Origin: Candidatus Thorarchaeota archaeon
GTDB lineage: Archaea > Asgardarchaeota > Thorarchaeia > Thorarchaeales > Thorarchaeaceae
Direction: 5' to 3'
Length of the DNA: 31,139 nt
Assembly (NCBI GenBank): GCA_048884785.1
Contig: JBHLQM010000022.1
Span: 15,664-46,802 of the forward strand
Position numbers and translations under genes: made by a program. Positions 1 to 11,552 of this stretch are shown piece after piece. How positions within the stretch are numbered: position 1 is the first letter of the stretch; each line of letters starts with the position of its first letter. The notes under the pieces are model-generated. The model saw only the letters and a program-made list of their open reading frames with translations. It ran no database searches and was not told the origin of the DNA.

Positions 1-3000
1 AGACCTACCCAGCTATCGTATGATGTGGAAGCGGCTGCTCCATATTTGGATAATGTTACAATTACGGTGACATTCGAGGATACACTTACCGCGGTTGGAA
101 TTGCTGGAGGGACTATTCTCCTCTCTTGTGCAACGGCAGCCGAATCGCTTGTACTGAATACCAACTACTGGATATCAGATTTGGGCGCGGGGGTGTATAA
201 TGCTTTCATTGATACCACAGCACTTGGGGCCGTTTCAACGTATTCAATCTCGGCACAAATCAGGTACTCAGGAGAACCATTCTACCAGAACAGAACAACA
301 TCTATTCCAGTTGAGGTGAGAGAGAGAGCAACACGACTTACCTACACACCTCCGTCGGAAACTCCATTCGGGAATGACTTGATTATCGCATTGAACTACT
401 ATGATGTGGATGCAGGATTGACGGGAATCTCGAATGCCGAGTCATTCTTCAGTCTTGATGAACTCAATGGTACTCCAGTAGATTCAAGTTATTATTGGGT
501 GGAGTTTGTATCTGGAGCTTCATATAGACTACATGTTAACACCACAAAGCTGGACATCTATGGAAGATATATTCTCACTATAAGCGTCGTTGGAAATCCA
601 ACCTATGAATATGATGATCAATTGATCTCGGTTGATGCAGACATTCGGGCAAGAAACACGCAGCTTACAACTGCACCCATCTCTCAGGCTAGCTACACAC
701 AGAACGCAACAGTGACTTTCTACTACAAGGACATCGAAGCGAATGTAGGGGTGTACAATGACACGATTGCAGGCGGAGTCTATGTCACCCTTAATACGTC
801 TGTCAGCTGGTGGGTTGTCCAAGAAACAGCAGGCAGATTCAAGGTATTGATCAATGCCACTGATCTTGGATCTACTGGCGAATTTGCCTTTCTGGCTTCA
901 TTTTCATGGATCAATGGAAAGCCATTCTATGAGAATCAGACACTTGAGTTCACGGTTTCAATCACTGGTGCTGGTTCACTCCTCACTTACTCCCCGCCAG
1001 AGCACGTACCAATTGGCGATGATATTGTAATTACCGTTGAATACAAAGACAGCTCAACAGGTTTTGGAATATCCAATGCTTCCGGATTTGTGCATACATC
1101 AATCACTCCGCTCAATGCAACACCCGCAGGGCCATTCCAATACATATTGACTAACCCTCAGCTGGGTGTATTTGTCTTTACAATCAATAGCACCCCCTTC
1201 TGGACGAGTGGACCAATATTCTTTGAAATAGATGTTTCATGGACAGATGGTGAATTACCATTCTACCCAGATGTGAATGGCACAATAATTAGGGCGGTCA
1301 TACGAGAGATATTCACTCAGACCCTTGCAGACGCTCCCAATCCAGGCACGGTACCGAAGGGAGACTCCACCTACGTGGTAATCGCTTTCTATGATCTGGA
1401 CCATGACAGCAATGTTCTAAGTGCAACAATAACGTCCACGTGGGCATACGGATGGTCCTACGAAGTTCTTGGAGATGGCAGTTTCAATATCACCATTCAA
1501 ACAAGTGGAATTGTAGCAACAGGGCAGGTGTCGGCACAGTTCACCTTCAATAGGTCATTCTATCAAACAAAGACTGCAACTGTGTATCTAACGATTCGCC
1601 TCATAAGCACAAGCGGATACTCAACCACACCAGATCCCTCGATTGTACCAGTTGGAGATACTGTGAGTGTTGAAATCGTCCACTTTGACACAGACCACCA
1701 GGTGAATATCACGGATGGTGCGATTGCCACAAGCTGGGCATATGGCTGGAGTTGGGTCAGAACTCCAACCGGCAGTTTCAGTATAACTCTCAACACAGCA
1801 AGTGTACCGAACCTGCTAAAGTACACAGTGACATTCACTCTATCGAAGGCGAATTATGCAAATGCAGTTGTCAGCATTCGCTTTGAAGTAAGGGCAATAC
1901 AAACTGGAATTACGGCAAGCTTCCTAACAGAGGTGGTTGCGGGTAGCAATATCACCGTCACAGTGACCTATGAAGACCTGGATCACAGTCAAGGAATCGA
2001 AGGAGCCAACATCCTAACAAATGCGCCAATGGGAACCTATGCCTGGGTCGAATTGGGTGCCGGGCAGTATAGCATAACATACTACCTCTGGTTGCAACCT
2101 GCAGGTACCTATTCTTATGATATCACAGCGACAAAGAGTCTCCACAATCCAGCATCAATGATAGTTGATTTGCAGCTCAGACAAGTGAGAACGGAGCTGA
2201 CAACGGACTATTCAATAATTCAAGTAAACTGGAGTGATCCGATTAGCCTCTCAGTATACTATGATAATCTGGATTTAGGAGGTCTCGTGGACGGCGCTAT
2301 AGTCAGGGCAACATTGAGCGGCGTGCAGTACCCAATGATATCATCTGGTTCATCCTACGACGTCACAATAGATTCAAGCTCTGTCAAGGCTGGAACCTAC
2401 CTAATAACCATCACCGCAAATAAGACCAACTTTGAGGCGCGGATAATTCAGGTAACTGTTGTTATCTCAGTTCTTGAGACCAGATTTGTGAGTCTTGGAG
2501 ATGTCTATTCATTCTCAGTTGTCAGTGGAGAGTCCGTCAATGTCACAGTATACTATGAATCTCTAGCATTTGGTGGAGTGTTGGGTGCGACAGTTGCTTA
2601 CTCATGGGACTACGGAACCGGAGTAATGGCATCTACTGGCCAAGCAGGTTACTACACGGCAATCGTTGATACAACTGACACTCCAGTGAATGTGTATACT
2701 CTATATGTTCGAGCAAACAAGTCCAACCACATCGAAGCGAGTATCTACTTCAGTCTGGATGTTGGCCTCGTTGAAACTGACTTGACACCTGTTGGCGAAG
2801 CAACACTCAGAGTGGTGTATGGAGAAATCGCAACTCTACTTGTGAATTACTCAAATGTGAATCTTGAATCACCTGTGACTGGCGCTACGCTGCTGTTCAG
2901 GTTTGGTGATGCAGATTACAACGGAACACTATCAGAGAGCTCTCCAGGAATTTACAATGCCACGATCTACACATCACAGCTGTATTCCGGAACGTTTAGC

Positions 3001-4608
3001 CTGTATATTGTTGCTACTAAGCCAGGATACGAAACTGGAACTCTCTCAATGTTGCTAGAGGTTGAGAGAATCAATACGATTGCGTCCGCACTGAATGTCA
3101 CTCTCACTATGATATATGAGCAAACAGGTGAGGTCTACTTTAGCTACCACGATATCCACTATGACCTACCAATTGAGAATGCGACACTCGAGTATCGCTG
3201 GCAAGGAGGTACCGGACTCCTGGAGGAAGTAGGAAATGGTACATACAAGATACTTCTTGATAGTACCACTGTCACTCCAGGTGTATATGATGTATATGTT
3301 ACGGCAAGTAAGAGCAACTATATGACAAGGACAACCTCATGTACGGTTCAGATCACAAAAATTGAGATGGAAATCGTAGTTAGTAATTACTTCGAAGTTC
3401 CTGTGGGAGATGTTCTGGTGATACCAATCAGAGTCAATGATATCTCATACAACCGCACAATAGAGGACATCGATGGATCGGTCGTATGGGCGCTGGGAAC
3501 TCCAACTCTAGAGGCCTTAGTGGGTGTACCTGGCAACTACACATTCATCATCCCCGCAGACACAGGCCTTGGTCAGTATGATATAACAATCATCGTCAAC
3601 AAACTTCATCACCGCACCATTTCCACAATTATCACTGTCGTAGTCCGGCCAATTGCCACCAGCCTGACCACACTTGATGGAAACAACTACGTAAGTGCTG
3701 TCAATGGGCAGTATCTCCAGATTGAAATCGTATACACTGACATCGACCATGGCTTGCCTATCTCCGGAGCAACGCTCTATGTTACTCAGACAACTGGCGT
3801 GCTAGAAGAGGGCGATGTGACAATAACTGAGGGAGCTTTGGCCGGGCATTATATCATCTCATTTGCCGTCACGGTTAGTGAGGAGTTTGAGATTGCAATC
3901 CATGCCTCGAATGGTCAAAACTACCAGGTGCAAAACCTACCATTGACCATAGTTGCCACTGCGCCGCCACAAGATCCATTGATGAACCTCATCATGATTG
4001 GTGGAAGTGCTGGAATCATCTTTGCACTGATTGGTGCTCTACTATGGGTTAAGATATTCAGTATTCCTAAAATCATTCGGATACTCAATAAGATGATCAA
4101 GTCTGTATCGAAAGGTAAGGTACCAGAGAAGCCTGAGTGTGCTGGCAGGAACGATCTTCTGCATGATATGGTCAATGAGGCGCTGGCACCAGTTGGCATC
4201 TACAAACCACTAGATGAAATGCCAACCGAAACCATCGACTTCAAGGTCCCAGAAACGGAGTCGCTTTTGATGGAACTGGCATCCATAACAGGTCTTGCAG
4301 AGTCTGATATTGCAGCTTTCCGTACCGACCTTACGAGGATGAAACCAAGTGAGCGACCGGGATTCCTCAATGAAGTCATCAAGCAGGAGAAGGCAAGACG
4401 AGCTCAAGAGCTGGCTGAAAAGCAAGCTGTGGATGAAGATGCGACTCGAACTGTCACTCCAGAGGAGCTCAGGGAAGTTGGAGAACGTCTTCTCAAGATG
4501 GGGTTACCACCTGAACAAGTTGAAGAGGTTCTAGAAAGCGCCAAGGATATGACTCGAGCTGAATTGGAAACAGTTCTGGAGCAACTCGACAAAAGCCTGA
4601 ACGAGTAG
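1..4608 (+). CDS. Giant surface (glyco)protein, 5'-truncated: at least 13 Ig-like beta-sandwich repeats of ~100 aa, one C-terminal TM helix and a ~180 aa cytosolic helical tail
   Basis: Frame 1 is open from base 1 (RPTQLSYDVEAAAPY...), so the GTG at 25 is probably not the true start. Repeats begin with an R/I-x-T-x-L-like motif and carry Y-x-D-x-D, G-I-x-x-A, G-x-Y-x-I-x-I-D/N-T and A-x-K-x-N-Y/H motifs, with many N-x-S/T sequons. The TM LIMIGGSAGIIFALIGALLWV (~3988-4050) is followed by basic residues. Confidence 0.9.
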   Translation, partial: RPTQLSYDVEAAAPYLDNVTITVTFEDTLTAVGIAGGTILLSCATAAESLVLNTNYWISDLGAGVYNAFIDTTALGAVSTYSISAQIRYSGEPFYQNRTTSIPVEVRERATRLTYTPPSETPFGNDLIIALNYYDVDAGLTGISNAESFFSLDELNGTPVDSSYYWVEFVSGASYRLHVNTTKLDIYGRYILTISVVGNPTYEYDDQLISVDADIRARNTQLTTAPISQASYTQNATVTFYYKDIEANVGVYNDTIAGGVYVTLNTSVSWWVVQETAGRFKVLINATDLGSTGEFAFLASFSWINGKPFYENQTLEFTVSITGAGSLLTYSPPEHVPIGDDIVITVEYKDSSTGFGISNASGFVHTSITPLNATPAGPFQYILTNPQLGVFVFTINSTPFWTSGPIFFEIDVSWTDGELPFYPDVNGTIIRAVIREIFTQTLADAPNPGTVPKGDSTYVVIAFYDLDHDSNVLSATITSTWAYGWSYEVLGDGSFNITIQTSGIVATGQVSAQFTFNRSFYQTKTATVYLTIRLISTSGYSTTPDPSIVPVGDTVSVEIVHFDTDHQVNITDGAIATSWAYGWSWVRTPTGSFSITLNTASVPNLLKYTVTFTLSKANYANAVVSIRFEVRAIQTGITASFLTEVVAGSNITVTVTYEDLDHSQGIEGANILTNAPMGTYAWVELGAGQYSITYYLWLQPAGTYSYDITATKSLHNPASMIVDLQLRQVRTELTTDYSIIQVNWSDPISLSVYYDNLDLGGLVDGAIVRATLSGVQYPMISSGSSYDVTIDSSSVKAGTYLITITANKTNFEARIIQVTVVISVLETRFVSLGDVYSFSVVSGESVNVTVYYESLAFGGVLGATVAYSWDYGTGVMASTGQAGYYTAIVDTTDTPVNVYTLYVRANKSNHIEASIYFSLDVGLVETDLTPVGEATLRVVYGEIATLLVNYSNVNLESPVTGATLLFRFGDADYNGTLSESSPGIYNATIYTSQLYSGTFSLYIVATKPGYETGTLSMLLEVERINTIASALNVTLTMIYEQTGEVYFSYHDIHYDLPIENATLEYRWQGGTGLLEEVGNGTYKILLDSTTVTPGVYDVYVTASKSNYMTRTTSCTVQITKIEMEIVVSNYFEVPVGDVLVIPIRVNDISYNRTIEDIDGSVVWALGTPTLEALVGVPGNYTFIIPADTGLGQYDITIIVNKLHHRTISTIITVVVRPIATSLTTLDGNNYVSAVNGQYLQIEIVYTDIDHGLPISGATLYVTQTTGVLEEGDVTITEGALAGHYIISFAVTVSEEFEIAIHASNGQNYQVQNLPLTIVATAPPQDPLMNLIMIGGSAGIIFALIGALLWVKIFSIPKIIRILNKMIKSVSKGKVPEKPECAGRNDLLHDMVNEALAPVGIYKPLDEMPTETIDFKVPETESLLMELASITGLAESDIAAFRTDLTRMKPSERPGFLNEVIKQEKARRAQELAEKQAVDEDATRTVTPEELREVGERLLKMGLPPEQVEEVLESAKDMTRAELETVLEQLDKSLNE

Positions 4609-5459: not shown

Positions 5460-6326
5460 CTAGGACTCTTCACTCTCTTTGTTCGGCTTTGCACGGCCAT
5501 AAAGGCGGCCGGATTCTTCTTCTACCATTTCAAAACTATGTTCTTCATCAGGGAATACACCATTTCTTACTTCATTGGAGTATTCTTCTACAGCATTTTT
5601 AATGACATCATGAACATTGGCATACTTCTTGAGAAACTTGGGTTTGAAATCGTCAAATAGACCTAGCATGTCCCAGAGCACTAAGACCTGGCCATCACAA
5701 TGGAGCCCTGCTCCAATACCGATTGTGGGGATGTCAATGGCGTCAGTAATTGCCTTTGCAGTCTCAGCTGGGACCAATTCTATCACAATGGAAAATGCCC
5801 CAGCATCCTGAAGTGATACTGCCTGCGCAACGAGTTCTTCAGTAGTTTCTTTAGTTCGGCCCTGAACGCGATATCCTCCCAGCTCATAGATTGACTGAGG
5901 GGTGAGTCCAATATGACCCATCACAGGAATTCCGGAATCAACAACGGCCTTGACAATCTTTGTGACTCGCCCAGCGCCCTCAATCTTTACCGCCTCCGCA
6001 CCCCCTTTTTGAAGCATCAGACCACAGTTCTCAAGGGCTTGTTCCTCACTCACCTTGTAGCTCATGAAAGGCATATCGCCAATAATCAGACTCTTGGGTT
6101 TGGCACGTGACACAGCCGCACAGTGATGAATGATATCATCCAATGTGACTGGTATGGTACTCTCATATCCCAGGAGACTGTTCCCTACCGAGTCTCCAAC
6201 AAGGATCATATCAACGCCCGCATCACTCAGGATCCTCGCAGTAGGAGCATCATAGGCAGTCAACATCACTATCTTCTTGCCTTTGGCTTTCATCTGACGA
6301 ATTTTGAATGTGGTCTTACGCGACAC
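5460..6326 (-). CDS. panB: 3-methyl-2-oxobutanoate hydroxymethyltransferase
   Basis: Motifs MLTAYD, ILVGDS, DMPFMSY, AVKIEG, MGHIGLTPQS, PTIGIGAG..CDGQVLV. Confidence 0.97.
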   Translation of the reverse strand: MSRKTTFKIRQMKAKGKKIVMLTAYDAPTARILSDAGVDMILVGDSVGNSLLGYESTIPVTLDDIIHHCAAVSRAKPKSLIIGDMPFMSYKVSEEQALENCGLMLQKGGAEAVKIEGAGRVTKIVKAVVDSGIPVMGHIGLTPQSIYELGGYRVQGRTKETTEELVAQAVSLQDAGAFSIVIELVPAETAKAITDAIDIPTIGIGAGLHCDGQVLVLWDMLGLFDDFKPKFLKKYANVHDVIKNAVEEYSNEVRNGVFPDEEHSFEMVEEESGRLYGRAKPNKESEES

Positions 6327-6417
6327 TCAGTAACACTCCAATGAATTACTAAGTATCTCTGGCATATATAGAATTCCAAGAGAGAATATGGTCGTCATTA
6401 TATTCTATATATTTATT

Positions 6418-8373
6418 CTAGATTTTGGCAAAGAATGTGTCAGTGGCTGAGAGATATACACCTTGGATCAAAGCCTTGAGAAGACAGAGTGCCAGTCTTT
6501 GTTGGATGTTTTGCTTTTTGGCAAAATCAGATACATTTAGGTTCCCAACATCTCTAAGATGCTCATTTAATAGATTGAGCCACCTTTCAGAAGCAACCAT
6601 TCCGCATGAATCCACAATCATATCATCTTCATTCAGTGTTTCTTTGGTCTCAGCTGCAACCTCATCATAGGATAGCTTGAGCTTCTGTACCAAGTCTTTC
6701 AGGTTGAAGATGCCTCGGTATCTCAATGCATCCGTAACTTGGCTCAGAAGCCATTCCTTGCTAACAAAGGTGTCATTTGATGTAGAAAATGCAGATGCAC
6801 GTAGAGGAGTGAACAACCGTTCGATATCATTGATATCAAATCCCCGTTCTGAAGCAAATGTCCCCAAATCTAATTCTCCACCTTTCTTGAAAATACTCTC
6901 TAGCTCCTTGGTCAGCGCCTTTCTTGAAACAAGCTTTCCTGTAGCGTCGGGAAGTGTATCATTCTGAATTCCTGAAAGAATGGATTCTACCACACTAGGC
7001 TCAGTATCAAACCTCTTCGCTAGCTCTTCGGGGGTAAAATAGCCTCCTTTACTAACACTATCAGAAACGAGCTTTCGTATCCACGAAATAGAAAGGTAGT
7101 GGCCTGAACGATTCATTGTAACTCTAAGTCCAAAACGCTTCAGAATTGCAGCGAGTTCAACTCTATTGATTTTCCATTGATTTTGGAACTTATCCGAATC
7201 CACCATCCCTGTTGTTCGGACCTCTTCAAGTATCCAATTCTTCATCGCTCTATATGAGATGTAATATCGGTCCTTCGTCCTTCGGATGCCAGGTTGATTT
7301 CTCAAGATGCGTTCAGCAAGTCCTGTGTCAATGCCAATATTTGATGCTACTTCTTCCACAGGTATGATACCTGCAAGATCGACATCATCCTGAAGCTGAG
7401 AACGCAGCTGATCCAGTGTCATTACTGAACCATCATTCGTTGAGATTAGAGTTAGCCCTGATTGCCTGAGTAGCATTTGCAGTTGAGGAGAAGGAATGTT
7501 TAGGCTCCTTGCTTCTGAATTTAAATCGAGACAACCTAGCTCCTCGAGCCTTGAAAGAAGATGTTCCTGAAGTATGTGGGATGGATATAGCCTATTATCA
7601 GTGGATTGAATGAAGTCCCACTTGTACAGACGAACCACTGTAAGTATATCTTCTGAGGAGAGGTCCAGTCTATTGGATTCTGCATCAAGGTCTAGATACC
7701 CTCGTTTTCCAACACCCCGTTCCAGAGATGAGAGGAGCCACTTAACGGAATACATCAATCCTAGAGAAGACTGCCACACATACCAGCCCCATGTCCTAAC
7801 TAGCCGTATTAGCTCCTCAACATCCACCTGCAGGCGTTGAGACTCAGCCATCACATCAACTCGGCCTTGAAGCTCGAGTGACTCCCTGATCCGATTCTTG
7901 AGATTCGGGACTAGAAGGTAATTTCCATCTTTTGTTAGAAGAATATCTAGACTCTCTCGCTCGCTAATCTCTTCAACCAGTCGGGATATCTCGGAGGGAG
8001 CCACATCCCAGCGCACTGCTTCTTTGTCTATATTTACTGTCGAATTGTTGACGAGTGTTTCTTTTAGTTTAGTAGACAGCAGCAGGGACGATACGACGGA
8101 AGATTTGGAAAAACTTAGGATTGCCAGCTTGCATCTGCTGATCAGATTTAGCAGGGTTTTAGTATCAATCCACGTGGCTTCTGTAAGGTGAATCAGCTCT
8201 GAAAGACTGACTGATAATCTTGAGAACATTAAATGGTCTAATTCTTCAACGAATTTCTTTCGCCTTCGAGTATACCAGCGAATGTATCCACCGATAACAA
8301 TTGCAGATAATATGAGGGCTATGATCATTGACCCAATCGTGTCACCCAACAGTGGAATCTGCAGTAGTATCAC
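6418..8373 (-). CDS. Membrane-anchored tandem winged-helix-repeat protein (UFL1/DDRGK1-like)
   Basis: N-terminal TM (MIIALILSAIVIGGYI) followed by RRRKK, then about 10-11 repeats of ~55 aa with pattern x-T-x-D-G-x-Y...L...L...G-x-h-D/N-h...A-x-x-L-x-h...I-x-x-h-L. The ORF is solid; the family call is by eye. Confidence 0.7.
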   Translation of the reverse strand: MILLQIPLLGDTIGSMIIALILSAIVIGGYIRWYTRRRKKFVEELDHLMFSRLSVSLSELIHLTEATWIDTKTLLNLISRCKLAILSFSKSSVVSSLLLSTKLKETLVNNSTVNIDKEAVRWDVAPSEISRLVEEISERESLDILLTKDGNYLLVPNLKNRIRESLELQGRVDVMAESQRLQVDVEELIRLVRTWGWYVWQSSLGLMYSVKWLLSSLERGVGKRGYLDLDAESNRLDLSSEDILTVVRLYKWDFIQSTDNRLYPSHILQEHLLSRLEELGCLDLNSEARSLNIPSPQLQMLLRQSGLTLISTNDGSVMTLDQLRSQLQDDVDLAGIIPVEEVASNIGIDTGLAERILRNQPGIRRTKDRYYISYRAMKNWILEEVRTTGMVDSDKFQNQWKINRVELAAILKRFGLRVTMNRSGHYLSISWIRKLVSDSVSKGGYFTPEELAKRFDTEPSVVESILSGIQNDTLPDATGKLVSRKALTKELESIFKKGGELDLGTFASERGFDINDIERLFTPLRASAFSTSNDTFVSKEWLLSQVTDALRYRGIFNLKDLVQKLKLSYDEVAAETKETLNEDDMIVDSCGMVASERWLNLLNEHLRDVGNLNVSDFAKKQNIQQRLALCLLKALIQGVYLSATDTFFAKI

Positions 8374-8391
8374 TCAACCTATTCCTTGTAT

Positions 8392-11328
8392 CTATAAAGT
8401 TCGACCTTGATTGCGCAGGTGTTTCTTGTATAATTCCATGCCAATGATGGCAGGAAATGCAGCGGCTAGGCAGATGATCCAGTCAAAGAGCGTGAGAGGC
8501 AGGAAGTAGAAATCTAATCCTGCCGATGAAAGAATCTCCTGAACAATGGGAACATACATCAATAATAGATTGGCGAGATAGATTAAGCCAAGAAGCACGG
8601 CATATCGACCAATGCCCGGCTCTGAAATGCTCTTGTGTAATGGTAGATTGATTCTTCTTATTACGAGAACTATGAGACTCTCAACAAGGAGAATTATGGT
8701 GAGAAGCATTGTCGTGGCTTTGGCGATTTGAATGTTCCATCTATCATCAATGAAGACTGTGTTTTCATTGTAGTACCCGGTGAGATTCTCTGGCAATACT
8801 TCTATAATTCCACCCCAACCTGTGAAACCCAAAGCATATACAATGGATGAGCCAATAACCATCAGAATAATGCCAATAGCCATGAACTTGGCGAGCTGGC
8901 GAGTTATGATATCCTCGCTGTCTCGAGGCTTTTCCTCCATTGCGCGGGGAGATGTCTTATCGAATACCAGAGCAAGACCTGGAAATGAATGTGTTGTGGC
9001 AACCAACATCAGTGCCTGCCAATTGGTAAGCATGTTGAAACCGGGCGGGAGAAGGAACAATGCACCAAAGAAGATGATGCTTTCAAATAGATTGATTGCA
9101 ATATAGAAGTAGACCATCATGCGTATTTTGTTAAATAGACCTCTTCCTTCATGCACACCCTTGACTATAGAGGCGAAACTATCATCTGTAATGACTATGT
9201 CAGCTGCTTCTTTTGCCACGTCCGTCCCAGTAATCCCCATTGCGATGCCTGCGTCACTCATGGCAAGCGCAAGCGCATCGTTGACACCGTCACCAGTCAT
9301 CGCCACGACTTTATCCTGGTCTTGGTATCTCTCTACGATAATCTGCTTATGATCAGGATTCACGCGTGCAAAGACATTCACACGCGAAAAGTCTTCATCC
9401 GAAATAGTTTCTATCTCAGTACCTTCAATAGCAATGGAGTTTTCATGGAGAATATTGAGGTTCCCTGCAATTGTTTTTGCAGTGGCTGCTGCGTCTCCTG
9501 TAATCATTATGACGTTTATTCCGGCACTATGACAGGCATTGACGGCTTCTTTGACGCCATCGCGAGCAGGATCAACAATGCATGTGAAACCGAGATAAGT
9601 GAGGTCCTGTTCCGTCCTATCTCTTGCAGTTGGTCCCTCTGGAAGTTTTTTCAAATCCCTATATGCAAGAGATATGACCCTATACCCGCGAGATGCAAAG
9701 CCATCAGTTAGTGTCTTTATCTTTGTGCGCGTCGCATCATCAAGGCGAGAGTGAGTTCCTGAGTTAGTTAATCGATTACAGCGCGGAAGAAGAACTTCTG
9801 TCGCACCCTTTGAGAAAACACGATATGATTCACCATTGCCGAATATCTTCGACATTCTCTTGTATTCAGAATCAAACGGAAAATCCAATGCAATTTTGTA
9901 TTCAGACAGAATCTTAGATTCATCTAGCGAACTCTTTCTGAACAGGGTCAACAGAGCGGCGTCCGTCGGATCACCCATAGGAATGTAGGCTATTCCTTGA
10001 TCAGGTATCTCCTTTATCATGATCTCAGAGTCATTATTGATGCCTCCGCAAATGAGTAGTGTTTTCAATCCGTTGTAGGATTCAATACTCTCCAAGGGTA
10101 TCGCATCATTAAGTGAAAGGTTGTCAATGTCAGTGGATTCTCTTATCTTCATTATCTGTCCAGAAGGAGTATATCCTTCTCCAGTAACTGAAAACAGATT
10201 CTCGGTGTCCCATACAAACTTTACTGTCATCTCGTTTCGTGTCATGGTACCAGTCTTATCCGAGCAAATCACACTCACTCGACCAAGACTCTCAACTGCA
10301 GAGAGGTCTCGGATTATCACACCCTCTCTTGCCATAGCGAGGACTCCGGTGAGCAATACAATGGTTGTAAGCAAGGGGATGTTGATTGGCATAATGGTCA
10401 TCGCTTTGGTGATTCCAGCCGCAATTGTATCAATTATTGCATTGAATTCCTGAACAGGAGGTTCGCCTCTTAGAAAGGGGCCTAGAAATATTGCCCATGT
10501 TATTGAGAGGACCATCAAGATTACAGCGGCCATACCCAGATACTTCGCAAGCAGGTTCACTTTCTTTCTAAGAGGGATATCTCCAGTATTTAGTTCTTCA
10601 AGAGTGCCCTGTATTTTGCCGATCTCGGTGGCACTGCCTGTGCTTGTAGCTACAATCTTGGCTGTACCGGTGGCAACATATGTTCCTAGGAAGACCATGT
10701 TTCTCATATCTGTGAGGGGAGCAGATTCCTCAACGATTAGTGAGTGATCCTTCGTTACAGGAACGCTCTCCCCAGTGAGAGATGCTTCGTTTGCTGTAAG
10801 ATTCGAGCAAGTTAGAATCCTAGAATCCGCAGGAATCCGGTCACCCTGCTCAAGAATGATGATATCTCCAGGTACAATATCAGCTGGATTAACATTTTCC
10901 TCGGCTCCATCTCTCAGAATTCTTGCATCTCCTGCTGAAAGCTTCTCAAGCGCCTCGAGTTTCTTTTGTGCTCTGAACTGCTGAAAGACTGCGACGACAG
11001 CATTTACTGTCACAATTGCTAGCCAGAAGATTGCTTGACCTAATTCTGAATTCTCAGTAGGAAAGAGGACCGCTAACGCAACTAATGCAAAGGAGCTTAG
11101 AAGGTAGATGTTAATCAGCCAGTTGAGTATTGGAGCAATATAGACTTTCCAAAGAGAACCCTTTACCTTGGGTATAAGATTGGGTCCATAGGAATGTTGA
11201 CGCTTCTTTACCTCGCTGTTTGAGAGACCCTTCCCTGAATCAACTGCCAGAGTCTGAAGTACTTCGTCTGCAGACATTGCATGAAACAGTGGTTTGGCTT
11301 CAGTTGCAATAATGTCAGGTTCAGACAC
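8392..11328 (-). CDS. P-type ATPase, P2(A)-like scaffold with non-canonical transport site
   Basis: Motifs ASLTGES, CSDKTGT, GDPTDAAL, FDSEYKRMS, KGATE, MITGD, FARVNP, MTGDGVNDA, AKEAADI. Start placed at GTG 11328 (GAGGT RBS upstream) rather than TTG 11382. Confidence 0.93.
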   Translation of the reverse strand: MSEPDIIATEAKPLFHAMSADEVLQTLAVDSGKGLSNSEVKKRQHSYGPNLIPKVKGSLWKVYIAPILNWLINIYLLSSFALVALAVLFPTENSELGQAIFWLAIVTVNAVVAVFQQFRAQKKLEALEKLSAGDARILRDGAEENVNPADIVPGDIIILEQGDRIPADSRILTCSNLTANEASLTGESVPVTKDHSLIVEESAPLTDMRNMVFLGTYVATGTAKIVATSTGSATEIGKIQGTLEELNTGDIPLRKKVNLLAKYLGMAAVILMVLSITWAIFLGPFLRGEPPVQEFNAIIDTIAAGITKAMTIMPINIPLLTTIVLLTGVLAMAREGVIIRDLSAVESLGRVSVICSDKTGTMTRNEMTVKFVWDTENLFSVTGEGYTPSGQIMKIRESTDIDNLSLNDAIPLESIESYNGLKTLLICGGINNDSEIMIKEIPDQGIAYIPMGDPTDAALLTLFRKSSLDESKILSEYKIALDFPFDSEYKRMSKIFGNGESYRVFSKGATEVLLPRCNRLTNSGTHSRLDDATRTKIKTLTDGFASRGYRVISLAYRDLKKLPEGPTARDRTEQDLTYLGFTCIVDPARDGVKEAVNACHSAGINVIMITGDAAATAKTIAGNLNILHENSIAIEGTEIETISDEDFSRVNVFARVNPDHKQIIVERYQDQDKVVAMTGDGVNDALALAMSDAGIAMGITGTDVAKEAADIVITDDSFASIVKGVHEGRGLFNKIRMMVYFYIAINLFESIIFFGALFLLPPGFNMLTNWQALMLVATTHSFPGLALVFDKTSPRAMEEKPRDSEDIITRQLAKFMAIGIILMVIGSSIVYALGFTGWGGIIEVLPENLTGYYNENTVFIDDRWNIQIAKATTMLLTIILLVESLIVLVIRRINLPLHKSISEPGIGRYAVLLGLIYLANLLLMYVPIVQEILSSAGLDFYFLPLTLFDWIICLAAAFPAIIGMELYKKHLRNQGRTL

Positions 11329-11552
11329 GATTAGTACCTCATAGACTACGATGTTAGAATGGCGACGGCATTGATAAATCAACTTCGAACCTACTATATC
11401 AAACCGTTCTAGGATGATTCCTCAACAACACTTGCGCCTTTTGAAGCTTCGGCTGAGGTATTCCTCATCCTTTCGCCCCCTTCGACAAGTTCATGTGTAT
11501 TTAGTAACAGGATATTTCGCCGCATGCGGCTCTAAAATACTGGTGCTAGAAA

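Follow-up and report, generated by a model that had tools for sequence, protein, structure and literature searches.

What might a membrane-anchored relative of the UFM1 E3 ligase scaffold do in an archaeal lineage with neither a UFM1 nor a ubiquitin cascade detected? The question is raised by a gene in a 31,139-nucleotide (nt) stretch of DNA from Candidatus Thorarchaeota archaeon (GenBank assembly GCA_048884785.1, contig JBHLQM010000022.1, positions 15,664 to 46,802 of the forward strand), which we refer to as the window. A first-pass annotation, made from the DNA letters alone, had described the product of this gene, termed the WH gene here for its winged-helix (WH) repeats, as a single-chain relative of the UFM1 E3 scaffold with an N-terminal transmembrane (TM) helix. 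We find that the WH gene encodes a single-pass membrane protein with 11 tandem WH domains, and that this array is truly, if distantly, homologous to the UFL1/DDRGK1 backbone. The protein probably serves as a membrane-tethered docking rod that is non-catalytic, UFM1-independent and accessory. We found no published description of a TM-anchored form with 11 WH domains.

The repeats, which are too diverged to be detected by self-BLASTP, became visible when a profile of 15 orthologues was aligned with itself. Off-diagonal matches (E values of 1e-23 to 1e-5) occur at shifts of 59, 114, 169, 224, 278, 333 and 388 residues and, as these are multiples of ∼56 residues, they define a period of ∼56 amino acids and 11 units. 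The AlphaFold2 model calculated from the 15-orthologue alignment (mean predicted local distance difference test score 83.4) shows a TM helix followed by 11 units of H-(E)-H-H-E-E topology. Canonical winged helices (Z-alpha, IclR, ArsR) fit single units with a root mean square deviation (r.m.s.d.) of 1.2–1.7 Å over ∼55 residues and Z scores of 8–10. The first-pass annotation had thus been right to see 10–11 tandem repeats of ∼55 residues and to take them for winged helices. The gene and its repeats are arranged as follows.

6418..8373, minus strand: WH gene, encoding a 651-residue single-pass membrane protein with 11 winged-helix repeats (open reading frame (ORF) list, translation)
8089..8262, minus strand: WH1, residues 38–95, the first helix of which is continuous with the TM helix (DSSP of the AlphaFold model, repeat alignment A2)
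7903..8088, minus strand: WH2, residues 96–157 (AlphaFold model, repeat alignment)
7810..7950, minus strand: UFL1-like motif, residues 142–188, comprising the WH2 wing and WH3 (orthologue profile versus UFL1)
7747..7902, minus strand: WH3, residues 158–209, the most conserved repeat (mean column conservation 0.66)
7582..7746, minus strand: WH4, residues 210–264, within the 204–434 stretch that superposes on a DDRGK1-UFL1 chimera
7417..7581, minus strand: WH5, residues 265–319 (model, repeat alignment, superposition)
7255..7416, minus strand: WH6, residues 320–373, superposing on canonical winged helices with an r.m.s.d. of 1.2–1.7 Å
7090..7254, minus strand: WH7, residues 374–428, among the three net-positive repeats
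6925..7089, minus strand: WH8, residues 429–483 (model, repeat alignment)
6760..6924, minus strand: WH9, residues 484–538 (model, repeat alignment)
6589..6759, minus strand: WH10, residues 539–595 (model, repeat alignment)
6421..6588, minus strand: WH11, residues 596–651, its wing modelled with low confidence
6418-6420, minus strand: stop codon of the WH gene

The WH11 wing aligns in sequence with the other wings, and its residues Gly-638, Tyr-640 and Asp-645 are invariant.

Homology to UFL1 is supported by sequence profiles and by structure. Pfam family PF09743 (E3_UFM1_ligase) matches the window protein with an E value of 3.2e-13 (50.4 bits, gathering cut-off 23.2), best over residues 529–635, and is the sole family matched consistently, being detected in 21 of 22 orthologues (best E 5e-15). 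When two-repeat pieces were compared with Pfam, PF09743 was matched by 4 of 10 pieces (E 2e-4 to 0.1) and was the sole match of the WH2-WH3 piece (E 2e-4), and other families matched singly, with E values of 0.06 or worse. A search of the PDB with the single sequence returned nothing relevant; the orthologue profile retrieved 8b9x, a DDRGK1-UFL1 chimera (E 2e-5). Profile positions 119–184 align to human UFL1 in 8b9x and 8c0d (LEVVHTLDGKEYITP...GGRVNIV), and the aligned motif is the UFL1 motif given in the first-pass annotation. UFL1 and the window protein have in common the pattern L-x-V-x-x-T-x-DG..Y-h-x-P....GRV-h-h, and the peptide quoted with the earlier claim (LDILLTKDGNYLL...VDVEEL) indeed occupies residues 142–188, window positions 7810–7950. 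Foldseek also places UFL1 chains first: the top five matches of the AlphaFold model, with E values from 1e-12 to 2e-8, are UFL1 or the DDRGK1-UFL1 chimera, led by UFL1 8qfc_B (1.4e-12) and 8ohd_A (2.7e-11), followed by 9gy4_E and 8b9x. VIA-align yields a Z score of 11.9 over 228 of the 256 residues of 8b9x (window-protein residues 204–434) and of 9.0 over 341 residues of UFL1 8qfc_B; the packing between domains is thus UFL1-like. The nearest ESM Atlas clusters are UFL1 as well, which we treat as leads only.

Tandem winged helices also serve as RNA- or protein-binding platforms in SelB (WH1–4) and ESCRT-II (Vps22/25/36), and SelB-type or ESCRT-II/PCI-type repeats had been named as alternatives to the UFL1 assignment. 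Their structural match is far weaker, however (Foldseek E 3.7e-5 for SelB and 0.024 for ESCRT-II 3cuq_B), UFL1 being ahead of the next-best match by about seven orders of magnitude. Pfam models for PCI (PF01399), EAP30/ESCRT-II, SelB (WHD_2nd/3rd_SelB) and GTPase domains gave no match in the window protein at E values up to 10, and the protein is without the EF-Tu-like GTPase domains of SelB or the EAP30 domains of ESCRT-II. The outcome that would have refuted the first-pass annotation, namely best matches to unrelated WH families or repeats other than winged helices, is thus not what we observe.

The SelB resemblance bears on a related idea, namely that the protein tethers DNA or RNA to the membrane, as SelB or classical winged helix-turn-helix (HTH) regulators would. 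Its single units superpose on Z-alpha, IclR, ArsR and SelB with Z scores of 8–10, and SelB is the next-best multi-WH match (E 4e-5). Yet the array is acidic: its isoelectric point is 5.8, 8 of the 11 repeats carry a net negative charge family-wide, and in every orthologue the acidic repeats are in the majority. Hydrophobic and acidic residues dominate the third helices, which have no more than a single basic residue, at their end, and neither SelB nor any DNA-binding HTH family of Pfam is consistently matched. We consider a nucleic-acid tether very unlikely. As the array is acidic and its third helices are poor in basic residues, general nucleic-acid binding is disfavored and protein partners are favored; the partners of the array would thus be proteins rather than nucleic acids, as for the WH domains of human UFL1, whose contacts are almost exclusively with ribosomal proteins and not with rRNA (PMC10937380).

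Despite this homology, the window protein is not functionally a UFL1 or DDRGK1 orthologue. UFL1 comprises a UFC1-binding N-terminal helix, a partial WH that is completed by UFBP1/DDRGK1, five WH domains and a C-terminal helical region, and UFBP1 a TM anchor, a long helix, one WH and a partial WH (PMC9627666). Human UFL1 (PF09743; PDB IDs 8qfc_B, 8ohd_A, 9gy4_E and 8c0d) and the window protein share tandem PCI-like WH repeats with helix 1 of each unit as the backbone. The window protein contains 11 WH domains, whereas UFL1 has the partial WH plus five, and a TM helix stands where UFL1 carries the UFC1-binding helix. This helix and the partial WH are both absent, the first repeat being already a full H-E-H-H-E-E unit. 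The C-terminal helical domain and the peptidyl transferase center loop of UFL1 are likewise missing: the chain ends at WH11, and UFL1 C-terminal families (including PF23659 and PF25870) have no Pfam match at E values up to 10.

With human DDRGK1/UFBP1 the window protein shares an N-terminal membrane anchor followed by a helix and by cytoplasmic WH domains, an orientation that is predicted for the window protein. We identified neither a long charged N-terminal region nor the UFM1-interacting motif of DDRGK1, for which no motif model was applied. The DDRGK family PF09756 is not significant (E 0.11, 12.6 bits, cut-off 27.8) and is matched by 0 of 22 orthologues at E values up to 0.01. We also considered DDRGK homologues elsewhere in the genome and rejected them, as the matches are weak and control genomes match likewise. 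The engineered chimera 8b9x joins two human chains across a composite WH, whereas in the window protein anchor and whole array lie on a single chain; because this chain is continuous, no pairing partner is expected. The proposed single-chain relative of the UFM1 E3 scaffold is thus borne out in part: the homology to UFL1 stands, and a significant DDRGK Pfam match, the UFL1 C-terminal domain and the UFC1-binding N terminus are lacking.

The membrane anchor is encoded at the 5' end of the WH gene, an uninterrupted ORF that starts with GTG, and its parts are the following.

8338..8373, minus strand: N-terminal stub, residues 1–12, predicted to lie outside the cell, with an LQxP motif
8269..8337, minus strand: TM helix, residues ∼13–35 (Kyte-Doolittle, AlphaFold)
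8254..8268, minus strand: RRRKK basic cluster, residues 36–40, directly after the TM helix (sequence)

Residues ∼1–35 form the sole hydrophobic stretch of the protein and give the sole Kyte-Doolittle window above 1.4, and residues 13–51 are modelled as helix by AlphaFold. A hydrophobic N terminus is found in 22 of 22 orthologues, as are the TM anchor and the basic cluster, always in the order acidic stub, TM helix, basic cluster (mean net charge of the stub is −1.1 across the family). The orthologues share the N-terminal residues M-x-L-Q-x-P with the window protein, and Gln-5 of the LQxP motif does not vary among 22 orthologues, although their identity is otherwise only 29–59%. Because RRRKK follows the TM helix, the positive-inside rule places the repeats in the cytoplasm, and this is supported by paralogues (see below) in which a signal peptide and an ectodomain precede the TM helix and the WH array comes after it. 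The WH repeats are thus predicted to be cytoplasmic, which agrees, as a prediction, with the earlier reading of the TM segment and RRRKK.

We next asked how the WH gene is distributed and what surrounds it. Full-length orthologues (∼650 residues, 29–59% identity) form ∼17 clusters at 50% identity, and the named sources are all metagenome-assembled genomes of Thorarchaeota. In a profile search of 301 Asgard genomes the WH gene was confined to the window's own family (21 of 76 genomes); within the family (86 genomes), 10 of 16 genera have it, in single copy, and no paralogue occurs in the same genome. Seven loci (29–55% identity) have a conserved order of MFS and S8 protease genes, then in the opposite direction a P-type ATPase gene, the WH gene and panB, followed by DUF1858 and SCP2. 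The ATPase gene and panB are neighbors across the Thorarchaeota family, and the WH gene is an insertion/deletion that always lies between the two, a region that corresponds to window positions 5460-11382. The 5' border of the WH gene is

8374..8391, minus strand: 18-nt spacer from the stop of the upstream P-type ATPase gene to the GTG start, holding AGGTTGA

and a scan of this spacer revealed no terminator-like site. Given the short spacer free of such a site, the ATPase and the WH gene are likely co-transcribed.

Could the protein therefore be an accessory subunit that tethers or regulates the adjacent, atypical P-type ATPase, comparable with phospholamban or FXYD proteins for P2 pumps? Both are membrane proteins, and besides the 18-nt spacing seen here, every orthologous locus examined has a spacer of 8–20 nt or a 4-nt overlap of the two genes. 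The ATPase orthologue (60–74% identity), however, is present in 16 of 16 genera and the WH gene in 10 of 16, and in genomes lacking the WH gene the ATPase adjoins panB directly, including sister genomes within genera g2 and g12. The adjacency is thus explained by inherited synteny, and the whole MFS-S8-ATPase-WH-panB-DUF1858-SCP2 block is syntenic, functionally unrelated genes included. We find an ATPase subunit hard to credit. That 6 of 16 genera retain the ATPase but have no scaffold also weakens a candidate 'proto-secretory module' of ATPase, scaffold and subtilase, which we rejected.

The WH gene evolves about twice as fast as its neighbor. Mapped on a tree of 38 ATPase orthologues, its presence and absence require at least 7 changes in the most parsimonious history, at least 3–4 of which are forced by well supported branches. 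As the position of the WH gene is always the same, it is most simply explained as an ancestral gene that was lost repeatedly; the changes are best read as losses and the WH gene as dispensable. PADLOC defence models gave no match.

The search for UFM1, UBA5 and UFC1 homologues that the first-pass annotation had called for went against its proposal. In the 3.6-Mb genome, which is 91% complete, Ufm1, UFC1 and Peptidase_C78 (UfSP) have no Pfam match at E values up to 1, UQ_con (E2) and ubiquitin are not matched either, and a single ThiF (E1-like) gene is present. The Ufm1 Pfam model matches 0 of 301 Asgard genomes. Because no UFM1 machinery is detected and the gene has been lost repeatedly, we favor an optional docking scaffold over a ligase. 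The product of the WH gene would be a type-II-like single-pass protein with ∼12 residues outside the cell, a TM helix and a basic cluster, after which a rigid cytoplasmic chain of 11 tandem PCI-like WH domains would extend. This array, homologous to the UFL1/DDRGK1 (UFBP1) platform of the UFM1 ribosome E3 ligase and here made as one self-anchored polypeptide, lacks the elements that equip UFL1 to work as a ligase and to clamp the ribosome. Most likely it serves as a docking scaffold, non-catalytic and independent of UFM1, to which one or several cytoplasmic proteins would bind at the inner membrane face, in an accessory and dispensable role. The scaffold function itself is inferred.

Several points weigh against a UFM1-independent docking scaffold. 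Arrays of winged helices serve many purposes, and each of the present units is similar to DNA-binding winged helices as well (Z 8–10). The whole-chain TM-score to UFL1 is low (0.18), since the rod is long and flexible. The completeness of 91% limits claims of absence, and Pfam would miss divergent Asgard Ufm1-like proteins, such as those reported from nine Asgard clades by structure-guided searches (PMC12962969). It is thus conceivable that a cryptic modifier system exists, in which the protein would be an E3-like scaffold for an Asgard ubiquitin-fold modifier, with a divergent Ufm1-like protein and an E2 that both escape Pfam. Three tandem WH domains are enough for UFL1/UFBP1 ligase activity (PMC9627666), and the ThiF-type gene could be counted in its favor. 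Against it stand the missing Ufm1, UFC1, UQ_con, ubiquitin and C78 protease matches in the genome, the complete lack of Ufm1 Pfam matches among the Asgard genomes and the replacement of UFL1's UFC1-binding N-terminal helix by a TM helix, and we rate such a system as highly improbable.

Might the docked partner be the ribosome? As a ribosome receptor, the protein would tether large ribosomal subunits to the membrane, much as the UFL1/DDRGK1 clamp does with 60S at the ER translocon but without UFM1, and the UFL1-type array combined with a DDRGK1-like N-terminal anchor would suit such a task. The WH domains of human UFL1 touch RPL13, RPL36A and RPL36 (PMC10937380). Homologues of eL13 and eL42 are encoded in the genome, but eL36 was not found. 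Most of the grip on the 60S subunit is provided by CDK5RAP3, the UFBP1 docking helix and the C-terminal helical domain of UFL1, which occupies the tRNA sites (PMC10937380), yet none of the three has a counterpart here. The loci contain no ribosome-linked neighbors, and the WH gene has been lost several times, whereas eL13 is universal in the family. A ribosome receptor therefore appears unlikely to us. A wider form of the idea, an unsplit, self-anchored DDRGK1-UFL1-type platform that docks large ribosomal subunits (e.g. via eL13 and eL42) or another large complex without UFM1 tagging, strikes us as quite unlikely; if true, it would show the role of the scaffold at a time before UFMylation, when the eukaryotic gene had not yet been split within a WH domain.

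The eL13 gene (PF01294) is located at G000:C3:87177-87446, and the family was detected in 78 of 86 family genomes, including all 23 high-quality ones, and in 0 of 14 control genomes (four archaeal). eL13 does not co-vary with the WH gene; as it is universal in the family, the co-loss comparison is uninformative.

To place the putative docking scaffold among its relatives, we compared other PF09743-type arrays, which occur in 107 of 301 Asgard genomes. The main Asgard form is a soluble protein of ∼790 residues, present in 62 of 68 genomes of one family (Lokiarchaeial, Promethearchaeota; L013–L018, L038). It has a WH array related to that of the window protein (hhalign probability 92%, E 6e-7) but differs in being soluble, with a Cys-rich Zn-ribbon N terminus, ∼5 WH domains and a Vps28-like C terminus, a WH-Vps28-like fusion previously noted by Liu et al. 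(bioRxiv 10.1101/2020.10.19.343400). These arrays match PCI, DDRGK and PF09743, and their distribution is far wider than that of the WH gene; they represent a use of UFL1-type repeats specific to Asgard archaea. One of them, L013:436-2799, matches PCI (E 3e-23), E3_UFM1_ligase (2e-20), DDRGK (4e-15) and the Vps28-like C terminus (E 1.5e-4).

A different group, found in Thorarchaeota/Asgard, comprises the receptor-like paralogues P0036 (2867 residues) and P0040, P0046 and P0047 (860–944 residues), in which a signal peptide, an Ig/PKD ectodomain, one TM helix and a UFL1-type WH array follow one another. A hidden Markov model matches P0036 with an E value of 2e-51 and P0040, P0046 and P0047 with 5e-34. 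The paralogues share the TM helix, the juxtamembrane WH1 and C-terminal WH units with the window protein, but they carry a large ectodomain, whereas the window protein is 'headless', with ∼12 external residues. None of the other PF09743-type forms sampled in Asgard genomes, apart from these TM-plus-WH paralogues, has an N-terminal TM helix. The recurrence of the module suggests that the TM-plus-WH rod is a reusable cytoplasmic adaptor of Asgard membrane and surface proteins. WH arrays of the UFL1 type were also seen behind a STAND/P-loop NTPase (nSTAND3) in P0041 and L034:240-2117, from Njordarchaeia and another Asgard genome, and a WH array behind three TM helices in P0043.

The window itself encodes a giant Ig-like surface protein (25-4608), which we tried as a scaffold partner on the Rosetta-stone idea and rejected, as its tail is unlike the WH family: the ∼180-residue cytoplasmic tail (3901-4608) gave an hhalign E value of 0.7. 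Nor is there any relationship between its ectodomain and the one found in the fused paralogue P0036.

An Asgard origin of UFL1 and DDRGK1, together with the proposal that their ancestral role did not depend on UFM1, is already in print, where it takes up one sentence and an appendix figure (PMC10183829). New here are the history of losses, the finding that the WH gene is not coupled to the ATPase, the receptor-like paralogues and the charge argument. The value of the finding is tempered: the outlines of the homology were already known, the function is inferred, and the gene, dispensable as it is, is limited to part of one family. No such UFM1-independent UFL1-type protein from Asgard archaea has been characterized so far, and the Thorarchaeota family offers a simple single-gene version of it, with an anchor joined to 11 WH domains, in a lineage without a detected UFM1 or ubiquitin cascade. 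The repeated natural losses provide a comparison set in which co-lost partners can be sought, and the partner of the window protein would tell what the scaffold does on its own.

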